Origin: an uncultured Acidobacteriota bacterium | Lineage (GTDB): Bacteria > Acidobacteriota > JAQAZP01 | DNA: 64,000 bases | Assembly (NCBI GenBank): GCA_963836075.1 | Contig: CAWIIB010000009.1 | Span: 3,104,001-3,168,000 of the forward strand | Direction: 5' to 3' | Part shown: in pieces, positions 45,359-63,770 of the stretch | Layout of the letters: each line of letters begins with the position of its first letter | Numbering within the stretch: position 1 is the stretch's first letter | Translations under genes and position numbers: made by a program | Notes under the pieces: model-generated | Database searches by the model: none | Seen by the model: the letters and a program-made list of their open reading frames with translations, nothing else | Told to the model about the DNA's origin: nothing

Positions 45359-45371
45359 CCTGGGCGTCTCC

Positions 45372-47384
45372 TCAGGGGGAATCGGCCTCAATCCAGCAGT
45401 TGACTTCTTTGCTGTCACCGGATGCCGGATATGGCGGTTGGTTGTACGGGGCGGGGGTCACGTCCACGGCCAACAGCTTGAAGCTGTTGCTGCCGATGAG
45501 GGCCGGGCTTTGGGGAATCAGCTGGTTCCAGGTGGTGGTGTGCAGCCCCCCGGCAGTTATATTGGTGTAGCCCGATCGCCAGTTGCTGATGGTCTGGCCC
45601 CCGGCGGTCTCGATGTCGATGCGTCCGGCGACCCGTCGCGTCTGGACGGCGGAGCGGTTGTGCAGGATCACCGAGAACTGAATGATAAACGGCAGGGTGC
45701 CGGAATCGGGTGCGCAGGTGAAGGACGCGTCAACCGTGTGAGTGAGCGGGTAGTGGAATCCCATGTCGGGTGTGCCATCATCCTGCACGCCATCAGTGCG
45801 GGTGGTGCCCGTGGGAGGCGATCCGGCCGGGTTGCCGGTATCGACGCAGGGGCTGTCGGCCGGCTGGCCGGCCGACACCTGGGCCAGGTAGTGGCTGCCT
45901 TCCGGGCCGGTGGCAAACAGCGGGTCGTCCTCGATGGCCCCGGCCCCCCAGGTGAGCGTGCCGCCGGAGCCGAGAGGGATGCCGGCCTCGCCGCCCTGCA
46001 CCGTGGAATAGGAGATCAGCAGGTCCGAGCTATAACTGCTGTATGACAGTTGCGGCCCGCTGGGCGCCGTGTTACCCCAGGCGATGGAATCGGTGAGCGA
46101 GCAGGCTCCGGCGATGTCGAAACAGATACCGCCCCCCTGGATCCCCGCCGTGTTGCCGACGATGGTCATGGCGGCAAGGTCGAGGGGAGAACTCGTCCAC
46201 AACCCACCGCCATCCTCACCGGCTTCGTTGCCCACCAGCAGGTTTTGCGATACGTCGCCGTTCCAGAAGCGGAGGAATAGACCGCCGCCATGGCGATCGG
46301 CGCTGTTATTCTCGAACCGGTTGTTGGTCAGGGCACAGTTGTCGGTGTCGTAGGCCATCAGCCCGCCGCCATGGCGGAGGGTGCTGTTGCCGCTGATGGT
46401 GTTGCCGGAGACCACGGTGCCGTCGCCGTAGCGGAGGAAGATACCGCCGCCGTCCTGGTCCACGAGGTCCGGCTCCACCACCGCATTGCCGGTTATCGAG
46501 TTGTCAACGATTTCTGCGGTGCCCTCGACATAGACCCCGCCGCCGCGAAACGCTGCCTGGTTCCCGTAGATGGTATTCTCGCGGATCGTTACCGTGGAGA
46601 ATTCCATCGCGATCCCCCCGCCCTTCCAGGCCGAAAAGTTGTCATTGATGGTGTTGTGCTCGATCACCACCGTGCAGCCCGTATGGGCATTGACCGCCCC
46701 GCCGCCGAAGGAAAATGCTTCTGTGCTGAGCGCCGTATTGTGACTCAGGGTGTTTCCGGTGATCAGGACTGTGCTGGCGGCGCAGTGAATGGCCCCGCCT
46801 TCGAAGTCGGCCGTATTCCAGGTAATCGTGTTCTCCTCGATCAACGGTGAAGCATTCTCGATGTAGATCGCCCCGCCAAAACTGGCAGCGGCCAGGTTGT
46901 TGGTCAGTGTGTTGCCAATGATCAGCGGCTCGGCGCCGTCGACACAGTGAATCGCCCCGCCGCCCCCGGTATCGGCCGTGCAGTCCAGGATCACGCAGCC
47001 GGTGATCGTCGGAGAAGCGCCCGAACAGCGGATGCCGCCACCGCTGTAGCGATTGCCGTTCTGGATGGTGAAGCCCCGGACCACGGATTCGGATCCCTCA
47101 CCCCCGGCGAAGGTGAAACCGCGGCCCAGGCCTTCGCAGTCGATGATACAGGCCGCCGGCCCGTTCTCAGATTCGACGGTGATGGCCTTGCCGAGGAAAT
47201 CGAGTTCCTTGTTGCCGTAGCCGGTCCAGACACCGTCGGCCACCAGCACGATGTCGCCGTCGACGGCCGCATCGATGCCGGCCTGGATCGTTGGCTGGTC
47301 GCCTGGGATGTGGAAGGTGGCGGCTGAGAGGGGCAGGGTCAGAAAGAGTACAAGCCATATGAAGGGTGCTGAAGAGATCTTCAT
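45372..47384 (-). CDS. Secreted beta-helix protein with CTD-B
   Basis: Same passenger and linker (GTTRTD..DMGFHYP), then FTCAPDSGTLPF...DVTPAPYNQPPYP..CWIEADSP. Confidence 0.88.
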   Translation of the reverse strand: MKISSAPFIWLVLFLTLPLSAATFHIPGDQPTIQAGIDAAVDGDIVLVADGVWTGYGNKELDFLGKAITVESENGPAACIIDCEGLGRGFTFAGGEGSESVVRGFTIQNGNRYSGGGIRCSGASPTITGCVILDCTADTGGGGAIHCVDGAEPLIIGNTLTNNLAAASFGGAIYIENASPLIEENTITWNTADFEGGAIHCAASTVLITGNTLSHNTALSTEAFSFGGGAVNAHTGCTVVIEHNTINDNFSAWKGGGIAMEFSTVTIRENTIYGNQAAFRGGGVYVEGTAEIVDNSITGNAVVEPDLVDQDGGGIFLRYGDGTVVSGNTISGNSTLRHGGGLMAYDTDNCALTNNRFENNSADRHGGGLFLRFWNGDVSQNLLVGNEAGEDGGGLWTSSPLDLAAMTIVGNTAGIQGGGICFDIAGACSLTDSIAWGNTAPSGPQLSYSSYSSDLLISYSTVQGGEAGIPLGSGGTLTWGAGAIEDDPLFATGPEGSHYLAQVSAGQPADSPCVDTGNPAGSPPTGTTRTDGVQDDGTPDMGFHYPLTHTVDASFTCAPDSGTLPFIIQFSVILHNRSAVQTRRVAGRIDIETAGGQTISNWRSGYTNITAGGLHTTTWNQLIPQSPALIGSNSFKLLAVDVTPAPYNQPPYPASGDSKEVNCWIEADSP

Positions 47385-47541
47385 GGTATCCCCCTGGCTA
47401 TTGCATTGGATCGGCAGACATGGCGTGCTTCGGATGCACCCATTATTATTCTTAAAGTAATAATACTAACAAGGGGGTGTGAAAGTCCATGAAAAAGAAC
47501 ATTGACTCAGGCTTTGCTGGGGCCTGGATGCGACCTTCGTC

Positions 47542-49593
47542 TCAGAACCTTCCCGCCGCAATTTCCGTTCCGTATAGCTGATCGGTTGCATAGCCGTCAT
47601 AGAGAAACCACAGGGTCATATCTCCATCACGATAGCTGTAGATATAGATCTGCTGGTTCGCTTCGGGGTCCGGTCCCGGACCCGCCAGCAGGTCGTCACG
47701 GCCGTCCCCATCCAGGTCGGTGCCGGAATAGACATTGGCCCCGAAATGCCAGAAATAGGCCAGGGCCAGCGGGAAACTGAAGTTCGGCAACTCGGTGACC
47801 GCGGTTCCGTCGTAGTTCCATCCCTTGACCCACGGTATGACCAGGGGGTCGGGTCCGGGGCCGGTGACCAGTTCGGCCATCCCGTCGCCATCCAGGTCAC
47901 CACAGGCCACATTGACTCCGTGTTTTGCAGTCTCAAAGGCGAAGAAACTGAGGTTGGGAATGGCGGTGACTGAGCCCCCGTCCACGTTCCAACCACGGAC
48001 GTGGGGACCGAAGTGTGCCCCCGGCCCGGCGCCGGTGATGATTTCGTCATAGCCGTCGCCGTCGATGTCGCCGCAGCAGACATTGACACCCCATTTCGGC
48101 GTGCCGTAGGCGAAATAGCTCACTCCGGGCACGGCCGTGACCGCCGGTCCGCCGTCATAGTCGAATGCCCGGACGTGCGAGCCAAAGACCGCGCCCGGTC
48201 CGGCGCCGGTGACGATCTCGTCGAAGCCGTCATTGTCGATGTCGCCGGCGGCCACGTTGACGCCATATTTCAGTGTGCCGTAGGCAAAGAAGCTAAGGCC
48301 GGGCAGGGGAGTGCCGTCCACGGTGAACCCGCGGACGTGGGGGCCGTATACCGCACCGGGACCCGGGCCGGTGAGGATTTCGTCGAAACGGTCCCCGGCG
48401 AGGTTGCCGCAGGCCAGGTTCACGCCATACCCGGTGGCGCCGTAAGCCGTGAACTCATACTGCAGGACCGGCACGATGAGCAGATCGACCGAATAGACCT
48501 TCACCAGCGGCGGGTTGGCCGGCCCGGCTCCCGGAGCGGCCACCACCCAGGGGTTCCCTGTGGGGTAGTGATACCCCAGGTCAATGATGTTGCTGTCGGG
48601 TACGGAGTCGGTACGGGTGGTGCCGTGGTGAAGTTCGGAGGCCGGATTTCCGGCATCGGCACAGGGGCTTTCCGCTGCCTGTCCGGCGGCAACCTGGCTC
48701 AGGTACCAGGGACCCTGGGGGCCGTCGACGAACAGGGGGTCGGCATTGATCAGACCGGGGCCGTATTCAACGAGTGCTCCGGGTTCCGCGTAGAGCTTGT
48801 CGATGTCCGACCAGGAGAGGTTTGCCGAGCCTCCCAGGTAGAGGTCCTCACCCACCCCGTCGGATTCGTTGCCCCAGATAACCGAGTTGGAGACCACGAT
48901 GTTCGCCGCATGAATTCCAGCGGCCAGGAATCCGGCCCAGTTGTCGGTAACGGTGCACCCATCTACCGTTGCCCCGCCAATCTCCAGGCCGCCGCCCGTA
49001 TCGAAGGCGGTGTTGCCATTCACCAGGTTGTCCCGGAACAGCACACCGCCCCTCAGCCAGGCGCCGCCGCCGGTATTCGCGAGGTTGCCGAGAAAGCGGT
49101 TGCCGGCCACCAGACCACTGCCGTTGTAGTAGAGCGCTCCGCCTCCATATCCGATGATCGAATAGTCGGCAGAATTATTGATGAGGATGTTGTCGAGGAT
49201 CGTGGGGGAACAGTTCTGCACCTTGATGGCGCCGCCGCTGTCGGATATGCAGTGACAGTTCTTGATGGTGAAGCCCTGCATGACGGCGTCGGGCCCCTCG
49301 TCGTTCTCGAAGACAAAACCCCGGTAGCCCTGGCAGTCGATGATGCACGCTGCAGCCCCGCCGGCAGATCTCACGGTGATCGCCTTGCCGTTGAAGGTGA
49401 CCTCCCGGTTCCCACCCCCGGTGTAGGACCCGTCGGCCACCAGCACCGTGTCGCCGTCAACTGCGGCATCGATCCCGGCCTGGATCGTGGGCTGGTCGTC
49501 AGGGACGTGGATAGTGGCGGCAGGGGCGGAGAGGGGGGCAAGCAGCGTTAAGCAGATAATAAGGCCGCAGGAGAGTGGGACAGGATGCTTCAC
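47542..49593 (-). CDS. Secreted beta-helix protein with CTD-A
   Basis: GGAGG RBS before GTG 49593; same architecture; ends AAGRF. Confidence 0.86.
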   Translation of the reverse strand: MKHPVPLSCGLIICLTLLAPLSAPAATIHVPDDQPTIQAGIDAAVDGDTVLVADGSYTGGGNREVTFNGKAITVRSAGGAAACIIDCQGYRGFVFENDEGPDAVMQGFTIKNCHCISDSGGAIKVQNCSPTILDNILINNSADYSIIGYGGGALYYNGSGLVAGNRFLGNLANTGGGAWLRGGVLFRDNLVNGNTAFDTGGGLEIGGATVDGCTVTDNWAGFLAAGIHAANIVVSNSVIWGNESDGVGEDLYLGGSANLSWSDIDKLYAEPGALVEYGPGLINADPLFVDGPQGPWYLSQVAAGQAAESPCADAGNPASELHHGTTRTDSVPDSNIIDLGYHYPTGNPWVVAAPGAGPANPPLVKVYSVDLLIVPVLQYEFTAYGATGYGVNLACGNLAGDRFDEILTGPGPGAVYGPHVRGFTVDGTPLPGLSFFAYGTLKYGVNVAAGDIDNDGFDEIVTGAGPGAVFGSHVRAFDYDGGPAVTAVPGVSYFAYGTPKWGVNVCCGDIDGDGYDEIITGAGPGAHFGPHVRGWNVDGGSVTAIPNLSFFAFETAKHGVNVACGDLDGDGMAELVTGPGPDPLVIPWVKGWNYDGTAVTELPNFSFPLALAYFWHFGANVYSGTDLDGDGRDDLLAGPGPDPEANQQIYIYSYRDGDMTLWFLYDGYATDQLYGTEIAAGRF

Positions 49594-49715
49594 GTGGCCT
49601 CCCATGCATTTCGAACTGCGCTCTATCCCCTGTCGTGCGCGAAAGGGCTCTGCACGGGGTTATTATCCATGAAAAAGTCATCAAAAGGGAATTGTGCCGT
49701 CCAAACATCAGCTGA

Positions 49716-49744
49716 TTGACTTGCGGTTCAATGATCGATACTCT
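49716..49744 (+). promoter_or_regulatory. Sigma70-like promoter upstream of the peroxiredoxin gene
   Basis: TTGACT-N17-TACTCT. Confidence 0.5.
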
Positions 49745-49863
49745 TGGCGTGAAAGGCGTAAGTCTAATGTAGGCAACGAAATATATGGTTTTTGTTGTCT
49801 ATGGTGGTCTGGGCTTTGCTCAAGGTTACTTCTGTCGCGGGATACGACCGAAAGGAGTGAATC

Positions 49864-50565
49864 ATGTCGCAGGAGAAGGACGGATGCGTCAAACCGGCCA
49901 GGGGGCCGATTGTGCAGGCCGGAGAGGAAGACGAATCAGGCGCCAACACTGAACGGAAGGGGGGAGAGCGTATGCAGGCACGGGTAGGACAGGAAGCTCC
50001 GGATTTCGAGGCCAACGCCTATGTGGCCGGAGAAGGGTTCAAGACGGTAAGGCTTTCCAGTTTCAAGGGTAAATGGATCGTGCTCTGCTTCTATCCCGGT
50101 GATTTTACCTTTGTCTGACCCACCGAGTTGGCGGCGGTCGCCGCCCGTTATGAAGAGTTGAAGGGATTGGGGGTTGAAGTGCTGGCCATGAGCACCGACA
50201 GCCGATTCGTGCACCAGATCTGGCAGCGCGAGGAACTGGTAAAAATGGTTGAGGGTGGGGTTCCTTTCCCCATGCTCTCCGATGCCGGTGGCTTGATCGG
50301 CAAGCTGTATGGCGTTTATGACGAATCCGCCGGTGTGGATATTCGAGGCCGGTTCATCATCGATCCCGATTTCGTTCTCCGGGCGATGGAGGTGCTGACC
50401 CCCGAGGTCGGCCGCAGCCCCGAGGAACTGACTCGCCAGGTCAAGGCGTTCCAGCACGTCGCGGCCACCGGCGAAGTGACCCCCTCCGGGTGGCAGCCCG
50501 GGGACACAACCCTCACCCCGGGTCCCGACCTGGTTGGCAAGGTCTGGGAGGTCTGGAAAGTCTGA
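49864..50565 (+). CDS. prxU: Selenocysteine-containing peroxiredoxin (PrxU/AhpC type), UGA at 50116-50118
   Basis: [14 protein letters not shown] with UGA at the peroxidatic Cys position; the two ORF-track pieces are in one frame; [15 protein letters not shown] motifs. Confidence 0.93.
50130..50145 (+). promoter_or_regulatory. Bacterial SECIS-like hairpin of prxU
   Basis: GGCGGC-GGTC-GCCGCC beginning 11 nt after the UGA. Confidence 0.75.
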
Positions 50566-50586
50566 ATCTGTCGTCGGGATCATCCC

Positions 50587-50624
50587 TGCCCGGAACGCGG
50601 TTCGACCCCTGTTCCGGGCATTTT
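50587..50624 (+). terminator. Terminator after prxU
   Basis: TGCCCGGAAC...GTTCCGGGCA followed by TTTT. Confidence 0.65.
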
Positions 50625-50728
50625 CATAACGGTTGTCTCCCTTTAATGGTTGTGAGATGATCGGCCATCTGAAAATGGTTTGCTGCACGCACTTTTATCA
50701 AGATGCACACGTCTGGAGGAAGTATCAA

Positions 50729-51283
50729 ATGATCACGGTTCTGCGCACTCTGCTCGTCTGCCTCATCCTCGTTTCACTGCCCGTGCTGGGAATCGCCTGC
50801 GGTGGTTCGGACTCCGCCGAAACTGCCGCCGGAGAGACCGCGGATGTCGCCACGCCGGGCAGCCCGGACGCCACAGAGGAGAAAAAAGCTGAATCCTCGG
50901 ATGATTCATTGAGTTCGCCGGAAGCCGCCATGATGGTGGCAAAATACAAAGAAATGGCGGCCAGTGAAGGCATCTACTTTGGCGAGGTGCCCGAGGGCTT
51001 CCCGCTCGACTTCATCCCCCTGCACCCTGACGGCAAGATCGACAAGTCTTCCACGGGCGGTGGTGATTTCACCCTGCTGCAGAACGTGCCTGCGGAAAAG
51101 GACACCGTCTTCGCCTGGTTCAAAGATTTTTATAGCGACATGGGCTGGACCGTTGGCGATCCCTTCACCATGGGCAATCGGACCATGACCGGCATCGATG
51201 GGAACAGTGGAGAGGTCTCCATGACCATGATTACCCAGGATGACGGATCGACATTCGTTGCCCTGGTGCTGAGCCCGAGGTAG
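50729..51283 (+). CDS. Hypothetical lipoprotein
   Basis: GGAGG RBS, hydrophobic signal ending GIA-C, low-complexity acidic linker. Confidence 0.75.
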   Translation: MITVLRTLLVCLILVSLPVLGIACGGSDSAETAAGETADVATPGSPDATEEKKAESSDDSLSSPEAAMMVAKYKEMAASEGIYFGEVPEGFPLDFIPLHPDGKIDKSSTGGGDFTLLQNVPAEKDTVFAWFKDFYSDMGWTVGDPFTMGNRTMTGIDGNSGEVSMTMITQDDGSTFVALVLSPR

Positions 51284-51299
51284 CGATCCCGCGGAGATC

Positions 51300-52367
51300 A
51301 TGAGCCATCGAACGGACAGGGGGCGCCGGCCCCGCCGGCTGGTCAACATCGTCCTGCTGCTGGCCAGCCTGGCCTGTTGCCTCCTGGCCCTCGAACTGTT
51401 CTGCCGGCTTGGCCCGGCCGACTCCGGTGAGGTCAAGCTCAACGATCCCCACCGCCATGTGAAGACCATCGGCCGGCCCAGGCGGTTCGCCCCCCTGCAC
51501 ACGTATCGCGAGCGGGTCCCCCTGGAATATGACCACCAGGGATACTATGCCCCTTCAAAGGGCCTGGTCAGCTTCCACTCCAACCAGTTCGGCGCCCGCT
51601 GGACCGCGCCGGAAGAACAACCGCTGGCCGAGCAACCCGTCCTTGTTCTCGGCGATTCCTTCACCTATGGCCACGGCCTGCGCTACGAGGACGCTTTTAT
51701 TTTCCGCCTGCAGCAGTTGCTGGTAGAGGAGGGGGCCGGTGTCAGTTTCATCAACTTCTCCCACCGTGGCGCCAATGCCAAACAGGTTTTGAGGAACTAC
51801 GAAGACGTGCGGACACGGGCCCCGCACCAGGAGGTGCTCTACGGTCTGAACATCAACGACCTGGTCTGGTTCCCGGCCAGCCACTTTGTCGTTGGCCCGG
51901 ACGCCCTGACCGGTCTCGCCGAGCACTGGAAGGGCTACGCCTTCATCTCGGGCCGGGTCCACCGCTGGCTGATCCGCCGTCAGCGGATCCGGCAGCTCCT
52001 CTCACCCTCCTCACTGGAGAGCGATGCCTTTGCCGCCAATATGGATGCACTGGTGCGGCTGAACCGGGCGGCATCGGCCCACGGTACGCCGCTCCGCGTG
52101 GCTCTCCTGCCCATCATGGTGGATCTGCAACAGGGGACCCTCCACCCGCTCTACGACGGAATCCGGGAACGGGTGGAAGCCGCAGGGATTGAATGCATCG
52201 ACCTCACCCGCTGCCTTGACGGACGTGCGGACCGCGACCTCTGGGTCCTGCCCTTTGACCAGCATCCCAATGCCGTGGCCAACCAGGTCTTTGCCCGGGA
52301 GCTGTTGGAACAGTACCCGGTGAACTCAGGGTGTGAGCCCGGTCACCTGGCAGCTGTCGGTGGCTGA
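51300..52367 (+). CDS. Membrane-anchored SGNH/GDSL hydrolase family protein
   Basis: VLGDSFTYG, NIND, DQHPN motifs; N-terminal TM segment. Confidence 0.85.
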   Translation: MSHRTDRGRRPRRLVNIVLLLASLACCLLALELFCRLGPADSGEVKLNDPHRHVKTIGRPRRFAPLHTYRERVPLEYDHQGYYAPSKGLVSFHSNQFGARWTAPEEQPLAEQPVLVLGDSFTYGHGLRYEDAFIFRLQQLLVEEGAGVSFINFSHRGANAKQVLRNYEDVRTRAPHQEVLYGLNINDLVWFPASHFVVGPDALTGLAEHWKGYAFISGRVHRWLIRRQRIRQLLSPSSLESDAFAANMDALVRLNRAASAHGTPLRVALLPIMVDLQQGTLHPLYDGIRERVEAAGIECIDLTRCLDGRADRDLWVLPFDQHPNAVANQVFARELLEQYPVNSGCEPGHLAAVGG

Positions 52368-54157
52368 GTCCCCTGACGGAGGGTATGGCGGTTGGTTGTA
52401 TGGTGCCGCGGTCACGTCCTCCACCACCAGGGTGAATATATTGTGTCCGGTCAGTGAGCCGAGGGCCGGGATGGTCCGGGCCCAGGAATGATCAGTCGCC
52501 TCCGGTCACCAGGTTGGCGTTGGCGGCCCGCCAGTTGCCGTAGGTCAGGCCTCCGGCCAGCTGGACATTGATCCGGGCGGCCATGGTGCGGGTGGGGCCG
52601 GCGTAGCGGTTGGCCATTCCGGCGGTGATCACAGTCTGGAAGGGCAGGGCGCCAGATTCCGGGACGCAGGTCAGGGATGCTGCCGCCGACGACCAGCCGT
52701 AATGGAATCCCATGTCGGCCTGGCCGGCTGTCGTCCACCCTATCGGTGCGGGTGGTCAGGTCGGCAAGGCTGACCGGACCGTAAGGGGTCTCGTAACCGA
52801 TGTTTGCCGCGGCGTCGTTTCCCGCATCGACACAGGGGCTCTGTCCGGGCTGCCCGGCGGCGGTCTGGCTCAGGTAAAAGTCGCCGGCGGAACCGGACAC
52901 GAAAAGCGGGTCACTCTCCAGCATCCCGTCGCCCCAGATTACCTCGCATTGGGTGCAGACGTCGATGGCCGCCAGGCCGCCCTCCAGGGTGCTGTGGCCG
53001 ATCTGCAGGATGGGCGGGTTGTAGTGCGACACGTTGTATTCCATCCTGATCTCGTATCCACCGGGAGCGCTGTTGCCCCAGATAACGTTGTCGGCGAAGG
53101 TGATCACCGAGTCGGAGAAGTAGCTGTCGAGAATCAGGATGCCGCCCGTGTTCTGGCCCGATATGTTCCCGGTGATGGTGTTGCAGATCACCGTTGACTC
53201 GGAGTGTTGGAACTGCAAGCCGCCGCAGTCACCGGCGGCGATGTTGCCGGCCACCAGGTTGTTGATCATCAGCCCGCCGTCACCGATCATATCCGAACCA
53301 AAAGCCATCCCCCCCACGTCACCGTCGGTCTGGTTGTCGAGTACCACGTTGTTGGCGGCCAGGACCTCACGCCCGGTGGCCGTCATCCCGCCGACCCAGG
53401 TGACCGAACTGTTGTTGGCCACGAGGTTGTCGATGACGATGGCGTTGCCGCTGGAGACCGCCATTCCGCCCACCGTGCCCGCCGACTGGTTGCCGGTGAT
53501 CGTATTCCCGGTGACCACCGCCTGGTCGCCGCGGCACTGGACACCGCCGGCGGCCACGATGGCGCTGTTTCCGGAGACCAGATTGTCGATGATTTCCACC
53601 ATCGATGAGGGGGCGCCATAGATGCCGCCGCCATATTCGGCCTGGTTCTTCTCGATGCGGTTCTCGATGATCAGCGGGTTCACCGTGCTGAAACAGGCGA
53701 TTCCCCCGCCGTAATCAGATGTATTGCCGGTGATCAGGTTGCCCCGGATGGTCGGGTCCGCGCCGCCGGAGACCATGATCCCTCCGCCATACTGGCCGAA
53801 CTCGTCGAGGTAGCCGTTCCTGATGGTGAAGCCCTCGAGCAGCGCATCGCGGGTCTCGTTTTCGTGGAAGAAGAAACCGCGGTGCTGTTCGGACGGACTC
53901 CCCTGGCAGTCGACGATGCAGTCATCCGGTCCGTGCTCCGAGCGGACAATAATCGCCTTACCGCGGAATTCGATGTCCCGGTTGCCTGCACCGGTGTAGA
54001 TACCGTCAGCCACCAATACCGTGTCGCCGTTCACGGCAGTGTCGATCCCGGCCTGGATCGTGGTTTGGTCCGCTGGAACATGGATCACGGCAGCGGTGGA
54101 ATGTGCAGCTGATGCGAGCAGGAAGACGGCGCTGGCCAGCAGGATGATGTTTTTCAT
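52326..54157 (-). CDS. Secreted beta-helix protein with CTD-B (frameshifts near 52725 and 52490-52500)
   Basis: GGAGG RBS, signal peptide, passenger and linker; CTD-B DNA closely matches 54287-54720; ends CQVTGLTP*. Confidence 0.8.
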
Positions 54158-54286
54158 GACCCCTCCCAGGATGAGTCCGGCACGGACGGCGATATGCATG
54201 AAGACATGTATGGCAATAATCGCTATTGAGTTATTGTACATGAAAAGTATACATGCATAAGGAAAACACGGGGGGGGTATCTGTGA

Positions 54287-56555
54287 TCAGGGAGCGATCC
54301 CGGTCACCTGGCAGCTGTCGGTGGCTGAGTCCCCTGACGGGGGGTAGGGCGGCTGGTTGTATGGCGCCGCGGTCACGTCCTCCACCATCAGGGTGAAAAT
54401 ATTGAGTCCGGTCAGTGAGCCGAGGGCCGGGATGGTCTGGGCCCAGGAACTGATCAGGTCGGCCTCCGGTGCCAGGTTGGCATGGCCGGCCCGCCAGTTG
54501 CCGTAGCTCTGTCCTCCGGCCAGCTGGACGTTGATCCGGGCGGCCATGGTGCGGGTGAAGCCGGCGTAGCGGTTGGCCATTCCAGCGGTGATCAGAGTCT
54601 GGAAGGGCAGGGTGCCCGATTCCGGCAGGCAGGTCAGGGATGCTGCAGCCGACGTCCAGCCGTAGTGGAACCCCATGTCGGCCTGGCCCGTATCGTTCAC
54701 CCGGTCGGTGCGGGTGGTGCAGCGGCCGATACGGGGGACGCTTGCTGCCACCGGTGGACAGGTCTCTTCCGCCAGGTTGCTGCCGGCATCGAGACAGGGG
54801 CTGTCGGCCAGCTGTCCGGCTGCCCGTTGGCTGAGATAGAACGGACCGTCCGGGCCGCTGAGGAAAAGCGGGTTGGCGTCGATGTTGCCGTTGGTCAGCG
54901 TGCCGGCCTCGATGTTGTTGAACCGGGTGTACCAGTCCCTGCCCTGCCAGACCTGGCTGTGGAGGTACGGCTGGTCGGGGGCGTTGTTGCGGATGATGTT
55001 GTTGGTCAGCGCCGGCTTGGAGAGGAAGCAGAGGATGGCTGCCGTCTCCTCGTAGGGGTACTCCTGGTTGTGCACCGGGTTGCCGGAGATGGTGTTGCTG
55101 ATCAGCCGGGGGTAGGAGTAGGCGCAGTAGATGGCCGAGGCGTTGACCAGCACATGGTTGTCGGTGAAAAGACTGTTGTAGATCACCGGTGAAGCGTCGT
55201 AGAGATACACGGCGCCGCCGTATTCGGCGAGGTTGCTGCTGAAGACGCAGCCGGCAATGGTCAGCCTGGAAAACCCGATGGCCGAGACCGCCCCGCCGCC
55301 GAACTCGTAGTCTTCCAGTGTGGCGTCCACCGCCTTGCCGTATTCGATGCGGCAGTATTCCAGCCGGCTGCCCGGGTTGGTGGCCGCCGTGCCGTGGAAG
55401 CGGATACCGTTCCAGCAGCCGGTGAGCGTGCGGTCCAGGTTGAAATCCGCCGGCCGGTCGGTGGTGAAGGTGATCATCGACCGGGGTGAGCCCACGGCAA
55501 TGAGTGTCCCCTGGACCGCGAGGCGGTGGAATCCTTCGAACTCCACCCGGGTGCCGGGGGTGACAGTCAGGGTCACCCCGTCATCCACGGTGACGTCGCC
55601 CACCACCCGCACCAGGTCGGCGTTCCAGGTGGTGTTCACCGCTACCGGGCCGGAGACGACCATCTCGTCACGCCGCGGGATGGTCAGGGGTAGCGGTGGT
55701 TCCTTGCTGTCCGGCCTGGCGGCACGATTGTCCCGGGTAAAGGTCTGGCAGCCGTACCCGGCGGCCGGCGATCCGGGGGCCAGGCTGTAGTCGCCGTTCG
55801 CCGGGTCGGCCAGCTGGGGGTCGGTGCCCACCACGTTGTTCCAGGGGGCCGAACCGGCCCCGTCCCATGGCTGGGGGGCGAATCAGCCGTAGTCGCAGAG
55901 CAGGCCGTAGTGCCGCAGGGCGTTGCTGTTGACCGCCGGGTCGGAGAACCAGGTCCAGTTGTGGTGCACATCCGGGCCGTTGATCCACCCCGGCAGCTCA
56001 CTCATGGCAACGGCCAGGCCGGTGGGCAGCCAGTCGTTGGCCGAGCCGTTGAGGTAGTGCACATCGGGACCCGTGTCCAGCGGATCGACCACGATGTTGT
56101 GGTCCAGTTCGATGTTCCGTGCGCTGGAGAGCAGCCGCACCGCGTAGTCGTGGGGCTGGTAGAAAGTGACGTTGCGCACGAAGCCGGCCGGCCAGTGGTC
56201 GGTGGAGCTGTCCTGATAGCCGCGGTAGCGGATATTGCCGCCCAGGATCACACAGTCGTCGATGTCCAGCCGGTTGCTGCAGTAGGAGATGCAGACCTCC
56301 GCCCCCTGCAGGTCGAGGATCGCCCCGTTACCCACGATCCGCACGTCCTCGCCGCCCGGCTAGAAACTGGGCGGTGATGCGGTTGAAGGTCCCGCCGATG
56401 AGCAGCCCGCCGGTATAGGTCACCCCGGTTTCCAGCACGATGTAGCGGTCGTAGCCCATGGCCGGAGACGCGGCGTCATGCATCTCTTTCAGCGTGGTGG
56501 CGAAGAGCGGCTGGCACAGGGCCAGGGCGAGGATGAAGGGGAGAATTGTGCGCAT
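54287..56555 (-). CDS. Putative selenoprotein of a family I do not recognise: secreted protein with CDYG-U motif, second beta-helix domain and CTD-B (UGA 55883-55885; frameshift near 56360)
   Basis: ORFs 55883..56344 and 54287..55834 are in the same frame, separated only by TGA plus 16 sense codons (LLCDYG-U-FAPQPWDGAGSAPWNNVVGTDP); hairpin at 55845-55861. Confidence 0.7.
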
Positions 56556-56632
56556 CGAACATCCAGTGCGGTTTAAGGACAGAACACACCCTCAATATAG
56601 GGTGTTTCGGTCGGGATGGCAAACAGGGGAGC

Positions 56633-59123
56633 TCAGGGGGAAATGGCCGCCACCGCGGCATTGCTCCCGTGGGTCCAGTCCCCGGGATAGGCCTCGAGGG
56701 AGAAGAGCAGGGAGAGATTCCCTTCCTGGTAGCTGTAGACCTTGACCGTCGATCCCATCCGGGGATCGGGCCCGGGGCAGACCACGAACTCGTCCCGGCC
56801 GTCACCGTTCAGGTCGGTGCAGGGGCCGACCCGGGCTCCAAAGCGTGCTTCAGCCGGGTCCCAGGCGAAGAAACCGAACCCGTCCAGTTCGCCCACCGCG
56901 AGACCGTCGAAGTTCCAGCCCCGGATGTGCGCGCCGAATGCCGGGGATGGTCCGGGTGCGGTGACCATCTCGTCGATCCCGTCACCGTCCACATCGCAGC
57001 AGGTGACATTGAGCCCGTATCTTGGTGTGTTGTAGGCGAAGAAACTCACCGCCGGGATGGCCGCGGCGGTTGCGCCGTCCACGTTCCAGCCCCGGACGTG
57101 CGCTCCGTAGATCGGGCCCGGACCGGCGCCGGTGACGATCTCGTCAAAGCCGTCGCCGTCGATATCGCCGGCGCTGACCTTAACCCCCCATTTGGGTGTG
57201 CCGTAGGCGAAGTAGCTGACCCCGGGCACTGCGGAAACAGTGGTATCTGGTGTAGGAGAAAGCACGGACGTGCGGGCCGAACACCGCCCCGGGGCCCGCG
57301 CCGGTGATGATCTCGTCCTTGCCGTCGCCATCGAGGTCGCCGGCCGCCACGTTGACCCCCCACTTGTTGGTGCCGTAGGCCAGGAAGTTGAGGCCGTCCA
57401 CGGGCTCGCCGTCGATGGTAAAGCCGCGCACATGGGGGCCGTAGATGGCTCCGGGGCCGGCGCCGGTGAGCAGTTCGCTCCCCGGGTACCGTCCACGTCG
57501 CCGGTGGCCACGTTGACCCCGAAATTCGACGCGCCGTAGGCTGCGAACTCGAGGGTGTGTGCGGCATCCTGCACTGCAGGGAAGACACGGACCAGGGGCG
57601 GGTTGTCCTCGGCCGGGCCCGGCCCGGTGATAATCATCGCGCTGCCCAGACCCGGGTAGTGAAACCCCATGTCCACCATGCCGACGATCGGTCACCCGGT
57701 CGGTGCGGGTGGACAACGTGGAGAGGGAGACCAGCCCGTCGGGGGTGTCGAAGCTGATGTCGGCGGCAGGTTCGCTTCCCGTGTCCACGCAGGGGCTCTC
57801 CTCGGCTTGCCCGGCTGCAAGCTGGCTCAGGTAGTGGTCGCCGTCGGGCCCGGTTGTAAAGAGAGGGTCGGCGTCGATCATGCCGTCGCCCCAGGTCAGA
57901 TTGCACTGGGGGCAGACATCAACGGCGTCGATTCCGCCCATGATATCGGAGTGACCGATCTCCATGTAGGGCGGGCCCCAGGTATCGCTGACTTCCAGCT
58001 TGATCTTGTACCCCTCTGGGGCAGATGTTGTCCCAGACGATGTTGTTGACGAACTCCAGGGGCCGGTCGTCATAGTTGCTGCCGTGGACCATCACCCCGC
58101 CCACTTCCTGGCCTTCGTTCCCGATGAAGGTGTTGTTCGTCACCGTGGCCCAGGCCAGGCTGAACCAGGCCCCACCGACAGGCGCCCGCGGCCCGGTTGC
58201 GGGCGACCACGTTGTTGATGAACACGCCGTAGTCCACCGGGTAGGTGGAAAAGGAGACCCCGCCGAGGAAGCCCTGGTCTCGTTGTCCACGATCACGTTG
58301 TCGGCCACCAGACTGGTTCTCGCCGCCCACCGCCATGCCGCCTACCCACCGTCTACGGACTGGTTGCCGGCGATCAGGTTGCCGATGATCGAGGCCCCCG
58401 GTTCGGCCAGCACATGAAGCCCGCCGACCGCCGTCCACGGCATCGTTGTTGGTGATCGTGTTGTCGGTGATGAACGGGGCGGCTGAACTCGGATCCGGAT
58501 ACCCCCGCCGGAGTATGAGGCGCTGTTCCCGCTGATCACGTTGTCCATGATGACTGGAACACGTCGGCGCCACCGTAGATCCCGCCGCCCGCGAAGCGCC
58601 TGATTGCCTACGATCCGGTTCCCTGTGATCAGCGGGCCTGCATTGCCGTAAAGGGAGATGCCGCCGCCGCTGCTTCACCGAAGTTACCGGTGATGATGTT
58701 GTTGCGGATAGTTGGGCTGGCGTGGTTTTGAACTGGCGATGCCACCGCCGTAGTTGGCGTCCGGGCTGTTGTAGCCGTTTCTGATGGTGAAGCCTTCCAA
58801 TACGGATCCCCGGCTCTCGCGCTCGTGGAAGAAGAAGCCCGCGGTGGGGATCCGCCTCGCTGCCCTGGCAGTCGATGATGCAGCTTTCCGGGCCGTTCTC
58901 CGAGCGGACGGTGATTGCCTTGCCGAGGAAGTCGATGTCCCGGTTGCCCTCACCGGTGTAGATCCCGTCGGCCACCAGCACCACGTCCTCGAGTCTGGCG
59001 GCATCGATGCCGGCCTGGATGGTGGGCTGGTCGCCGGGGACATGGATGATGTCGGCGTGCAAAACAACAGATAAAACGAGAAGGATAAGAAATGTGATCG
59101 GAACAAGTGCCTTGTCGCATCAT
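56633..59123 (-). CDS. Secreted beta-helix protein with CTD-A (many frameshifts, probably sequencing error)
   Basis: Colinear fragments in alternating frames: HADIIHVPGDQPTIQAG, DADPLF..YLSQ, TRTD..DMGFHY, GAGPG..GPHVR, HGSNAAVAAISP*. Confidence 0.7.
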
Positions 59124-59131
59124 CGTCTCTC

Positions 59132-61386
59132 CTATCTCATCCACCCGGCGGTGGCGTTGCTGCCGTGACTCCAGCCGGCGGGGAAGGTGTCAAAACTGAG
59201 AATCTGTTCTATGTCATCATCGACATAACGGTAGATTCCTGCCGGTGAGCCACATGTCCGGGTCGGGGCCGGCGGTGACCAGGAACTCGTCGCGGCCGTC
59301 GAAGTCGAGGTCGGCGGCTTTGCCCACCCGTGCTCCGTAGCGCGCTTCCGCCGGGTCCCAGGCAAAGAAACTGAAATTGGGCATGGCGGTGGTCTCCTGG
59401 CCGTCCCAGCGCCAGCCGCGGATGTGGGCGCCGAACTGGCTCGAGGGACCGGGAGAGGTGATCATCTCGTCCACCCCGTCGCCGTTGACGTCGGCGCAGC
59501 AGACGTTGACCCCGTATTTCCAGGTGCCGTAGGCCATGAAGCCCATGTTGTGGATCACTTCGGCCGTGCCCCCGTCCACATTCCAGCCCCGGACGTGGGG
59601 GCCGAATACAGCACCCGGGCCGGGACCGGTGACGATCTCGTCGAAACCGTCGCCGTCGATGTCGCCGGCGGTGAGGTTGACGCCCCACTTCAGCGTGGAG
59701 TAGGCGAAGAAGTTGACGCCGGAAAGCGAGGAGACGCCGCTGCCGGGTGTGTAGGAGAAGGCCCGGACGTGGGGGCCGAACACATCGCCCGGTCCGGCGC
59801 CGGTGATGATCTCGTCTCTGCCATTGCCGTCCAGGTCACCCAGTGCCACGTTGACACCGAATTTGAGTGTGCCGTAGGCCATGAAGTTGAGGTCCTGGAT
59901 CGGGGTGCTGTCCGATTCGAAGCCCCGCACGTGGGGGCCGTAGATGTCGCCCGGTCCGGGGCCGGTGATGATCTCCAGGGCCAGGTCGCCGTCCGGGTCG
60001 CCGCAGGCCACGTTTACTCCGTAACTCGATGCGCCGTACGCCGCAAACTCCCGGATGGGCAGTGGGATGTCTCCCTGGGACATGACCCGGACCAGCGGCG
60101 GATTCAGTTCCGAGGGCCCGGGGCCGGCCACGATGCCCAGGGCCGGGTAGTGGTAGCCGATATCAATGGTGCCGGTATCCGGGTAACCGTCGGTGCGGGT
60201 GACGCCCAGCGGGACCTCGGTGGCCGGGTCGCCGGCATCGACACAGGGGCTGTCCACGGGCTGGCCGGCAGCCTCCTGGCCCAGGTAATACCCGCCCTGC
60301 GGCCCATTGACAAAGAGCGGGTCGGCGCTGATCATGCCCGGCCCCCAGGTGTAGGACGCATCGTCCTCCACCTGGATCGCCGATTCGCCGTTGATCAGGT
60401 TGGAGTAACGGATGTCGAGAGTCTGGTTGTTGTCGATAAGGATGTGTCCGGTGATGATGCAGTTGGTGACCCGGAGATGGTCGCTGTACCGAGGATTCGA
60501 TGTTGGTGATGATATTGCCGTCAAGAATCAGGTCGCCGCTGCCCCGCATCGACATGAGGTCGCTGCAGCTCAGCGTGTCATTGATGAAAATGTTGTTGCG
60601 CACGGTGCCGGAGCAGGTCCAGAGCCCGTCACCGTAGTGGGCACTGTTACCGATGAAGACGTTCCCCTCGACCAGCCTTCCATACTTCACTCCGCCGCCG
60701 TAGCCCTCACCCTGCCCACCCCCTGCGCGGTTGCTCTCGATGAGATTACCGATGATCATGCAGTCGCCGCGCGCAAGAATGCCCCCACCATCGGAATCCG
60801 AATATCGTTGAGTGGTTGAGTTGTCGTAGATCCAGTTGTCTGCGATCAGTGGCGATCCACCATAGGTGTCAATGCCCCCACCCGATCCCCAGGCTCCGTT
60901 CCTGGAGATGGTGTTATTGAAGATTTTCGGTGATCCCCCGAAATTTTTTATTCCGGCTCCGGACACGAGAACATCTACCCAATATTCCCCCCAGCCGTTG
61001 AGGGAAATGATATTGCCGGTAATGGTTGGAGAGGAGTCCTCACAGTAGATCCCTCCGCCCACGGCGTTGGTGATAGTGAATCCCCCGATGAATGCACTGG
61101 GGCCTTCACCATTGGCAAAGGTCACCGCCCTTTCCTCATGGAAACTCCCGTCTATCATTGTCAGTACAGGTCCGGCTGAACTGCGGACGACGATGTTCTT
61201 CCCCAGAAAACTGATGGGGTCATAATAGGTGCCGGGGCCCACCATTACCGTGTCACCGTCCACCGCCGCGTCGATGCCGGCCTGGATCGTGGGCTGGTCG
61301 CCGGGAACGTGGATGGTGGCGGCGGGGAGCTGAACCGCCGGAATGAGGAGGATGAGTATCCAGACGATGATCAGCAGCCGGGCCAT
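59132..61386 (-). CDS. Secreted beta-helix protein with CTD-A (frameshifts near 60495 and 59240)
   Basis: ORFs 60163..61407, 59217..60524 and 59132..59365 are consecutive parts of the family architecture. Confidence 0.78.
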
Positions 61387-61483
61387 GGCGTTCTCCGTAG
61401 TTTTCATGCAGTGATGAGACGGAGCACTGACGCAATTCTACCGCATTTGTGATTGTCCATGAAAAATAATGCAGGTGCCGGAA

Positions 61484-62282: not shown

Positions 62283-63584
62283 CTACTCCTGGCTGGCAGG
62301 GGCCTTGTCCATGTCTTCCTTGATCTTCTCGATCCGTTCCACATACTGGGTGTTTTTGCCGCCGCTCATCTCCAGGGCCTGCTGTTCGGTCTCCAGGGCC
62401 AGCTGGTGGTCGCCCATCATCCACTGGACCATGCTCATGGTGTCCAGCAGGTTGTCGTCCGCCGGGTCGATCTCGGTTGCACGCTGGATCGCCTGGAGCG
62501 CGCTGTCGAGGTTTTTCTCCTGCAGGGCCCAGAACCAGGCGTAGCCGTTCAGCGTGGGGGCGTCATCGGCCATGAACGGCGCGATGTAGTCCTCACCGTA
62601 GACCGCCAGTGCCTTCTCGTCCAGGCCGGCCTTGATATAGAGCCGGGCCAGCTCGGGATTGATGTGGGAATCAGGTTCGAATGTCTCCAGCGATGTGAGG
62701 TGGTCGGCCAGTTCAACAGCCCGTTCGGTATTGTATCCGGTCTGGGTGCTGGCGCTGATGTAGGTGCTGAGCAGCGGGATCTCGTCGGGATACTGTTCAA
62801 TGAGCATCTCGGCCACGCCGAAGCCCCCTTCGCGGGTGGCGTCCCGGCTCATCTCGCGCCGCAGGAGATCGAACGCCGTGCCCCGCAGGCTGCTCTCCGG
62901 GTAGTCGGCCAGCGTTTCCGGGATCCGTTCCGGCTTCTCGTAGAGCTGCATGAACCGGGCGAACTCCAGGGCGTTGATCTCTTCGTGGTTGTCGCCCAGG
63001 GGCAGGGTGAGGGCCGCCGTCTCATCCGCCCGCTGGACCAGGGTTCGGACAAAAGGCGCCATGTCGTCATAGCTGTAGTTGCCCTTGTGCTTGCGGGCCA
63101 GCCGGGCCACGGTGGCCAAATCTTCCGGGTTCTCGGCAAAGGCCCGGCGCAGGGCCAGCAGGGTGTACTCTCCGGTGTAGGCCTGCTCCAGCCTGGTGCG
63201 GTATTCGGCCGCTGGCGGGCCGTATCCCACCAACCGGTCGATCTCCTCGCCCTGGTCATTGAGCACCAGCACCGCGGGGGTGCCGCGGATCTTGAACTTC
63301 TCGAAGAGCGTCTTGCCCAGATCCTCGGTGGAGTCGGCGTGGACCAGGACAAAGGTGCTGCTGAGGTATTCGGCGAACTCGCTGTTGTTGAAAAATTGCT
63401 GATCCAGCAATTTGCAGGGGCCTCACGTGGGTGAATAGAAGTCGATGAGGATCAGCTTGTTCTCGGCCCGGGCCTGCTCCTGTGCCGCCTCGAAGGTTTC
63501 CCCTTCGAACCAGAACGGCGCCTGCTGGCAACCCGCGGCGGTGAGCAGCATCAGGATTGAAAGTAGTGTGAGGCCTTTTCGCAT
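62283..63584 (-). CDS. Putative selenoprotein: lipoprotein with UxxC thioredoxin-like domain and TPR region (UGA 63423-63425)
   Basis: AGGAG RBS; lipobox-like TAAG-C; KLILIDFYSPT-U-GPCKLLD in frame with ORF 62283..63410; GTP cis-Pro loop; hairpin AAATTGCTG-GAT-CAGCAATTT at 63393-63413. Confidence 0.88.
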
Positions 63585-63770
63585 GGTACGGATGCTCCTT
63601 TTTGATGTTCTATTCATTTCCCTGCGTAATTTTTGTCATTGCTTCGCTGGCAATGACGGTGCGGGGCAAGGTCGACTCTCCTCGCTTTTAAAATTGCCAG
63701 CTGTTCCTCTTGCGGAACAGATGCAACAAACGGTGACCCCATTCTGTTGCACACCCCTTCTATAACGAGA

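Follow-up and report, generated by a model that had tools for sequence, protein, structure and literature searches.

The gene considered here lies on the minus strand, between positions 56555 and 54287, of a 64,000-nt stretch of DNA (the window) from contig CAWIIB010000009.1 of an uncultured Acidobacteriota bacterium. Around an in-frame TGA at 55885..55883 this strand reads CTG CTC TGC GAC TAC GGC TGA TTC GCC CCC CAG CCA TGG GAC GGG GCC GGT TCG GCC CCC TGG AAC AAC GTG GTG GGC ACC GAC CCC, which places the TGA between the residues L-L-C-D-Y-G and F-A-P-Q-P-W. An open reading frame (ORF) running from 56344 to 55883 terminates at this TGA. It is followed by 16 in-frame sense codons (F A P Q P W D G A G S A P W N N) and then by the GTG at 55834, the called start of a second ORF (55834..54287) whose first residues are MVGTDPQLADPANGDYSLAPGSPA. 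An earlier inspection of the letters alone (the sequence-only reading) had described this arrangement, along with a GGGGCCG-GTT-CGGCCCC hairpin starting 21 nt after the TGA, and both were found as described, the hairpin at 55861..55845. If the TGA is translated as selenocysteine (Sec, U), the frame stays open from 56344 to the stop codon at 54289..54287. The piece starting with the ATG at 56555 lies in another frame and joins the rest only if a one-base frameshift near 56361-56366 is ignored. Features of the gene are collected in Table 1. On the evidence presented below, the product of the locus is very probably a single secreted protein of some 755 residues with Sec at the UGA; its C/U-x3-U pair (Cys or Sec, three residues, Sec) would be the working site. 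A tblastn search of the organism's own genome with the first 240 residues returned the gene itself only, and a scan of the window at Rfam gathering thresholds returned three tRNAs and nothing else.

Table 1. Features of the putative selenoprotein gene (feature, positions in the window, strand, content or basis)
Whole gene of the putative selenoprotein	54287..56555	minus	signal peptide, N-terminal beta-helix with C-x3-U, second beta-helix, C-terminal module
ATG start (56555) and signal-peptide-like N-terminus MRTILPFILALALCQPLFA	56499..56555	minus	sequence; similar hydrophobic N-termini in most homologues
One extra base in a TTT run, CAGTTTCTAGCC versus CAGTTCGAGCC	56361..56366	minus	DNA alignment with G002 and G001
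Predicted N-terminal right-handed beta-helix domain, family-specific, up to the G-Y-G-C-Q-T-F motif	55735..56344	minus	AlphaFold2 model, VIA-align, alignment A6
First Cys codon (TGC) of the C-D-Y-G-U motif	55895..55897	minus	sequence, codon tallies
In-frame TGA, very probably read as selenocysteine	55883..55885	minus	frame, orthologues, codon tallies
Hairpin GGGGCCG-GUU-CGGCCCC of the bacterial SECIS type, loop 55852-55854	55845..55861	minus	folding, identity within the genus, covariation
Second beta-helix domain, Pfam PF13229	54980..55363	minus	E 3.4e-07, residues 328-455 of P0001
True stop codon, also TGA	54287..54289	minus	frame translation

Orthologues were sought in 60 related genomes with the read-through N-terminal part as query. 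The genus has just two further species there, G002 (84% identity) and G001 (73%), and both carry the gene. Each has exactly one TGA inside the match, and in both the context is L-L-C-D-Y-G-TGA-F-[AS]-P. The G002 orthologue (L024:1291-3558) shows no break between its signal-peptide-like start and its stop, with 755 codons and one TGA. Two wider censuses were then compiled: one of genomes, with one genome per GTDB species (N-domain alignment A3; best 80 of 107 relatives), and one of metagenome contigs from the Joint Genome Institute (alignment A6; best 80 of 123 relatives). Local motif alignment of the genome loci gave TGA at the Sec column in 78/80, TGC in one (L083) and left one unaligned (L084). 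The latter reads TGT...TGA in a separate regular-expression pass, which brings the total to 79/80. In the metagenome set TGA is found in all 79 loci that cover the column, the remaining one of the 80 ending before it. The two sets overlap and are not independent, because L108 is identical to L028. Record titles of the genome loci name about ten phylum-level groups: Planctomycetota/Phycisphaerales, Candidatus Eisenbacteria, Cloacimonadota, Krumholzibacteriia, Fibrobacter(aceae), Gemmatimonadetes, Armatimonadota, Latescibacterota, Bacteroidia and Acidobacteriota. Cys at the Sec column is rare (1/80 genome loci, 0/79 metagenome loci), but it does occur there in homologues without the TGA. A word-indexed protein search returned three full-length homologues (49% identity) that align straight through the site; P0002 and P0003 (= L083, TGC) have C-E-Y-G-C at the motif and are single proteins of about 700 residues, and P0004 has W-E-H-G-W. 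Homology thus continues past the TGA, and the column is TGA or, rarely, Cys, as the sequence-only reading had anticipated for a genuine Sec site.

The same reading had cautioned that the region is error-rich, so that a TGC or TGG might have been miscalled as TGA. This warning held in part. A one-base frameshift, absent from the relatives, does occur in the gene some 480 nt upstream of the TGA, and a neighbouring gene also looks frameshifted. The TGA itself, judged by sequence comparison, is not a base miscall, because the same column is TGA in both congeners and in the loci of the two censuses. Independent assemblies bear on both points. Twenty sequencing runs contain parts of the stretch, with no RNA run on record among them; contigs (not raw reads) of four runs from four studies were compared over 55600-56600. 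A 268-base contig of run X1 spans 55694-55961 and bridges the site with a single difference, at 55834; since this difference lies elsewhere, the contig carries the TGA. Of the runs compared, X1 is the one for which the differences listed establish this. Against this background, we give practically no credence to the proposal that the TGA is a base-calling or assembly error.

The frameshift requires separate consideration. The window differs from G001 and G002 by one extra base and one substitution (CAGTTTCTAGCC versus CAGTTCGAGCC). In contigs of X2, X4 and X5 (90-99% alike) one base is missing at 56361 or 56364, which restores the frame; the frameshift is therefore peculiar to this assembly or strain, and is probably an assembly error. 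The family might nonetheless be real and the window copy a pseudogene, as the extra base and substitution relative to the congeners and the lack of the base in three other runs would allow; X1, the closest run, has its contig break exactly at the frameshift. The rest of the gene is nevertheless open, is 84% identical at the protein level to the intact G002 orthologue and carries no other defect, and an extra base within a run of T would be typical of a long-read error. A genuine frameshift is accordingly thought unlikely. The runs are labelled as sediment and salt-marsh metagenomes, which suggests that these are habitats of the family.

Coding potential extends well beyond the TGA. At least 400 open codons lie 3' of it in 71/80 genome loci; in the other nine, L029, L097 and L106 run off the end of the locus, L036 contains a masked stretch, and L061, L077, L080, L084 and L098 reach an early stop. 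The residue directly after the TGA may be F, V, T, A, N or S, which leaves no conserved codon for a restart, and the 16 codons that follow the TGA are conserved at the protein level (F/V-x-P-x-x-W-x-x-A-G). The downstream ORF begins midway in the beta-helix cap motif D-P-x-L-x-D-P-x-N-G-D-Y. An exhaustive HMMER search over 1.84 billion representatives, of which the best 150 matches were examined, yielded dozens of proteins of 450-520 residues whose residue 1 or 2 aligns just past the Sec column, with starts such as VAPEEW..., MLPQAW... and MIPTPW.... One of them, P0078, maps to L039 at 98% identity and begins at the base directly after the TGA of L039. We therefore regard these proteins as the footprint of gene callers restarting past an internal TGA; to judge from the alignments, annotation pipelines split the gene into fragments, P0006, P0011 and P0078 being examples.

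The same abundance of database proteins that begin just past the site could be taken to mean that the TGA is a true stop, with the N-terminal domain and the 515-residue downstream ORF being two separate genes; Sec insertion surely has to contend, to some extent, with termination at the UGA. This arrangement is highly improbable in view of the protein-level conservation of the intervening codons, the lack of a conserved start codon after the TGA, the position of the downstream start inside the cap motif, and the existence of the Cys forms as single proteins of about 700 residues. Moreover, AlphaFold2 (AF2) folds the two sides of the site as one domain, with a predicted local distance difference test (pLDDT) score of at least 94 over residues 201-270. 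This agrees with the earlier suggestion that the downstream ORF completes the upstream beta-helix domain.

The organism appears equipped to decode UGA as Sec. Its genome (6.2 Mb in 10 contigs) was searched and hits were judged against curated cut-offs. Hits for selB (365.7 bits), tRNA-Sec (74.7 bits) and selA (562.8 bits) are over the cut-offs, as are two copies of selD (G000:C4:17381-18301 and G000:C9:892330-893256), each containing a single in-frame TGA. Both SelD proteins of this genome are themselves selenoproteins. In all five other carrier genomes sampled, the Cys-form genome included, selB is over its cut-off. Together with the conserved TGA column and the Cys of rare homologues, this supports the CxxxU arrangement that had been proposed from the letters.

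That the UGA is instead read as Trp, Cys or Gly, through a variant code or a near-cognate tRNA, would seem to be favoured by P0004 and P0012, which show W at both motif positions (W-E-[HY]-G-W). In our view the simplest explanation of these residues is a gene caller that translated TGA under table 4; when metagenomes were scanned with P0012 for the DNA of W-x3-W proteins, no relative was found. Because the gene's own terminator is a TGA, this codon is a stop in the organism's code, and recoded TGA is confined to two Cys-equivalent columns. With the full Sec machinery present (selB in 5/5 other genomes) and covarying hairpins of the selenocysteine insertion sequence (SECIS) type following the site, insertion of another amino acid is considered very unlikely.

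In the published model of the bacterial SECIS (bSECIS) given in PMC13188914, the apical loop measures 3-9 nt and has a G in its first two positions, the upper stem comprises 4-16 bp, the UGA-to-loop distance is 16-37 nt and the minimum free energy (MFE) is -7.5 kcal/mol or lower. The window hairpin, which starts 21 nt after the TGA, has a 7-bp stem, the loop GUU, a UGA-loop spacing of 28 nt and an MFE of -13.6 kcal/mol, and so falls within every one of these limits. All three species of the genus share its exact sequence, although nearby synonymous sites vary. The best hairpins of the 80 genome loci fall into three classes: one with the loop GUU, GUG or GGUCA starting at +30 or +31; a second with GGA, GGC or GUC starting at +23; and a third with AGUUG starting at +21, found in Cloacimonadota-type sequences, which are three codons shorter here. 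A strict version of the published model, allowing no bulge, was scored on Sec sites and on control in-frame sites of the same genes. It was passed by 38/79 genome Sec sites versus 263/3160 control sites (8.3%), and by 44/77 metagenome Sec sites versus 218/3080 control sites (7.1%).

Compensatory changes point in the same direction. Among the 28 sequences of the +31 class, alignment columns 27 and 39 (each a third codon position) pair as CG (8), UA (6), AU (5), GC (5), GU (2) and UG (1), with one sequence unpaired. The covariation score of this class is 0.233 versus 0.052 for shuffled alignments, a value reached by 0/500 shuffles and with slid registers giving at most 0.093; that of the +23 class (27 sequences) is 0.254 versus 0.126, again reached by 0/500 shuffles, the sequences of either class being related to each other and not independent, and the percentage of paired positions being inflated because the classes were formed after inspecting the hairpins. 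On the aligned sequences, then, the hairpin stems undergo compensatory wobble changes. Taken together, the fit of the window hairpin to the published limits and the covariation of the stems answer favourably the call of the sequence-only reading for a SECIS check.

Several observations weigh against the interpretation of the locus as a functional selenoprotein gene with a SECIS element, the two reservations just attached to the covariation among them. About half of the Sec sites fail the strict no-bulge model. Synonymous resampling makes the actual MFE only modestly better (mean z -0.60), with 12/80 loci at 0.05 or lower and 23/80 worse than the median; much of the pairing potential therefore stems from the conserved peptide W-x-G-A-G-S-A-P. 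The Cys-form locus L083 retains the same hairpin. A comparison of MFE with other windows of the same genes is likewise weak (median rank 0.16; 22/80 loci in the top 5%), and we do not rest the case for the SECIS on global MFE tests. Furthermore, the window copy is frameshifted near 56364, some 480 nt upstream of the TGA, and, should the shift be genuine, might not give a full-length product; the contig of X1 breaks at precisely this point. Clustering of the ORFs in the 1.5-kb flanks of the 80 genome loci revealed no conserved operon partner, the commonest flanking ORFs being an S8-type protease (10/80) and a membrane protein (8/80). Finally, both the actual insertion of selenium at the UGA and the chemistry and function of the C/U-x3-U pair are matters that we infer.

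Pfam identifies PF13229 (Beta_helix) in the second half of the window protein and nothing else; among 73 N-domains, PF13229 is matched weakly in 32 and DUF5123 in 14. On the full G002 orthologue, NCBIfam 20.0 gave two sub-threshold matches, neither to a selenoprotein model. The first 286 residues of this orthologue were modelled with AF2 using a 73-homologue alignment (A6). The model is all-beta, with a mean pLDDT of 91.6 and a predicted template modelling score of 0.89; 10-residue blocks over residues 201-270 score 94-98. The Sec sits in an ordered loop after the strand 216-219, and the cap strands 248-258 follow. A Foldseek search of the PDB returned nothing at E 0.001 or lower, and a sequence-profile search of the PDB gave one weak match (E 0.076) restricted to the cap motif. 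VIA-align, run against 48,161 chains, ranked 7dmk_A, a polysaccharide lyase family 6 (PL6) alginate lyase, first (Z 14.7; root-mean-square deviation 3.2; 193 residues aligned), followed at Z 10-13 by pectate lyases, tailspikes, alginate epimerases and NosD (7o0y_A, Z 10.4); 89 chains, mostly beta-helices, score at least 8. Because of these matches the N-terminal domain is, as modelled, a right-handed parallel beta-helix and not a thioredoxin fold, in agreement with the fold type put forward by the sequence-only reading. Matches to thioredoxin-family Pfam models were found neither in the window protein nor in the 73 N-domains.

Conserved residues cluster around the motif. In alignment A6 the residues H215, C220, U224, P227, N199, W200, N209 and R140 (G002 numbering; C220 may be Sec) are invariant in 73/73 sequences; D136, N153 and T161 were also noted as invariant. 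Sec224 thus follows the invariant His by nine residues and the invariant Cys (or second Sec) by four. Other cysteines are also well conserved: C101 (72/73), C269 (70/73), C92 (69/73) and C88 (61/73). The C-termini of the homologues are phylum-specific modules; that of P0003 comprises Por_Secre_tail and FlgD_ig, according to a precomputed Pfam list. Since hydrophobic, signal-peptide-like N-termini are found in most homologues and P0003 has a Por_Secre_tail, export is a reasonable supposition, and the protein, to judge by these sequence features, is probably extracellular.

These data lead us to propose the following scheme. SelB carrying Sec-tRNA(Sec) would bind the hairpin while the ribosome stands on the UGA, resulting in the insertion of Sec; the protein would be exported by means of its N-terminal signal peptide; and the C/U-x3-U pair would form a selenylsulfide, or a diselenide in the U-x3-U forms. 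As a working site, the pair could carry out redox or nucleophilic chemistry on an extracellular substrate, or chelate a soft metal. A redox or catalytic role seems to us evenly poised between right and wrong. We are doubtful of a metal site, and to the same degree of a purely structural cross-link.

The first position of the motif is itself variable. Its codon is TGC or TGT in 65/80 genome loci and TGA in 15/80 (L036, L059, L065, L071, L075, L076, L085, L086, L092, L093, L095, L098 and L104-L106), which yields U-x-x-x-U. With 22/79 metagenome loci of the same type, U-x3-U forms total 37 loci. The two TGAs lie 12 nt apart in these forms. A proximal hairpin (loop at +8 to +18) in addition to the distal one was found in 11/15 U-x3-U versus 19/64 C-x3-U genome loci (nominal p = 0.03, the sequences not being independent); the loops of proximal hairpins are often without G.

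A quick maximum-likelihood tree was built from 73 N-domains with the motif columns left out. Its groups largely correspond to the phyla named in the record titles. L028 and L029, which represent the window's genus and of which one congener bears the title Acidobacteriota, are nested in an otherwise Planctomycetota clade (L030-L044) with a Shimodaira-Hasegawa-like approximate likelihood-ratio test (SH-aLRT) value of 99, which indicates that either the gene was transferred horizontally or a bin carries the wrong label. The states CU, UU and CC require at least six changes on the tree, so Cys and Sec have replaced each other several times at the first position. The second position, corresponding to the Sec column, was lost to Cys once. 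Considering all of the above, we would put at about even the chance that these loci make up an undescribed, near-obligately Sec-containing family of secreted or surface proteins with two beta-helices, the working site being a selenylsulfide (C-x3-U) or, in roughly one member in four, a diselenide (U-x3-U), the latter perhaps served by two tandem SECIS elements.

The family was compared with known systems. Table 1 of PMC13188914 (May 2026) describes 119 prokaryotic selenoprotein families with domain models and motifs; it has no entry for a beta-helix domain, PF13229, DUF5123, C-x3-U or U-x3-U. Searches of the open-access literature for a beta-helix selenoprotein, for bacterial CXXXU/UXXXU and for selenocysteine in Cloacimonadota produced nothing relevant. 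TonB-dependent receptor and UshA-like selenoproteins are exported. According to PMC13188914, the TonB-dependent receptor (FCYXU, NF049945, CxxU) and the UshA-like protein (CxU, CxxU) also have a UGA/bSECIS-encoded Sec outside a thioredoxin fold, with a Cys nearby. The former is a beta-barrel and the latter a metallophosphatase, with CxxU/CxU spacing, whereas the family described here is a beta-helix with C-x3-U. In addition, those families have many Cys homologues, as reported in PMC12013277, in contrast to a single Cys form in 80 loci here; and no TonB-dependent receptor or UshA-like model of NCBIfam 20.0 matches the G002 orthologue.

Closely paired Sec residues, like those of the 37 U-x3-U loci, are found in the UxxU metal-binding protein (NF041115), in an FmdB-family UxxU protein and in the rhodanese/DsbD fusion TsoB (UxxxxU, NF045694). 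The two close Secs of the U-x3-U loci presumably act as a pair too. These UxxU and TsoB families are unrelated in sequence, fold and spacing, and the double-Sec form described here arose several times within one family. As to fold, the N-terminal domain resembles the PL6 alginate lyase 7dmk_A, PL1 pectate lyases, tailspikes and NosD (7o0y_A), which are secreted or surface proteins acting mostly on polysaccharides. Sequence identity to them is 8-17%, and none is reported as a selenoprotein in the PMC13188914 table or in the literature searched. Finally, we noted a likeness to another protein family in the motif itself. Proteins of the Sco/SenC type have a C-x3-C plus His copper site in a thioredoxin fold. 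The family studied here has the same spacing together with a conserved His (H215, C220, U224) in a different fold, and the likeness is taken as a lead only. In summary, the kind of system, a bacterial UGA/SECIS selenoprotein, is known; the family, its fold context, its motif and the near absence of Cys forms are new. In line with the sequence-only reading, which did not recognize the family, it appears to be uncatalogued, as judged by NCBIfam 20.0 and the 119-family table of PMC13188914.

About 160 loci each contain one gene of about 750 codons with an in-frame TGA, which pipelines call as fragments. Homology-based selenoprotein pipelines need Cys homologues (deep-Sep, PMC12013277); a family with 158 TGA and one TGC is therefore what pipelines dependent on such homologues would miss. 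The U-x3-U forms, whose UGAs are 12 nt apart and are often accompanied by two hairpins, are a natural test case for the way in which SECIS elements serve closely spaced UGAs. Thioredoxin-like folds predominate among known selenoproteins. The known uses of selenium would be widened by a beta-helix protein that is exported and bears a Cys/Sec or Sec/Sec pair. If the interpretation is correct, a polysaccharide-lyase-type fold would be seen in a selenoenzyme for the first time, and sulfur would here almost never substitute for selenium outside the cell.

The gene is located inside a same-strand (minus) array, 42488-61407, of beta-helix, NosD-like and FG-GAP repeat genes. A C-terminal module, ...TRTDRV.D.G..DMGFHY..., is common to the putative selenoprotein and several genes of the array. 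In a paralogous beta-helix ORF, 52451-54241 (minus), the last 110 residues or so, directly after the shared TRTDRVDD motif, are low in complexity and rich in R, P and G, which suggests another assembly frameshift. The sequence-only reading had also noted a UGA with a hairpin in three other genes of the window. In the one gene that was checked, probably one of these three, the UGA proved real: a thioredoxin-fold/tetratricopeptide-repeat lipoprotein-like gene, 62283-63587 (minus), has a TGA at 63425..63423 in the context S-P-T-U-G-P-C (UxxC). This UxxC thioredoxin-like type (Thioredoxin_2, PF13098) is already listed as a selenoprotein in Table 1 of PMC13188914, to which the gene belongs by type.

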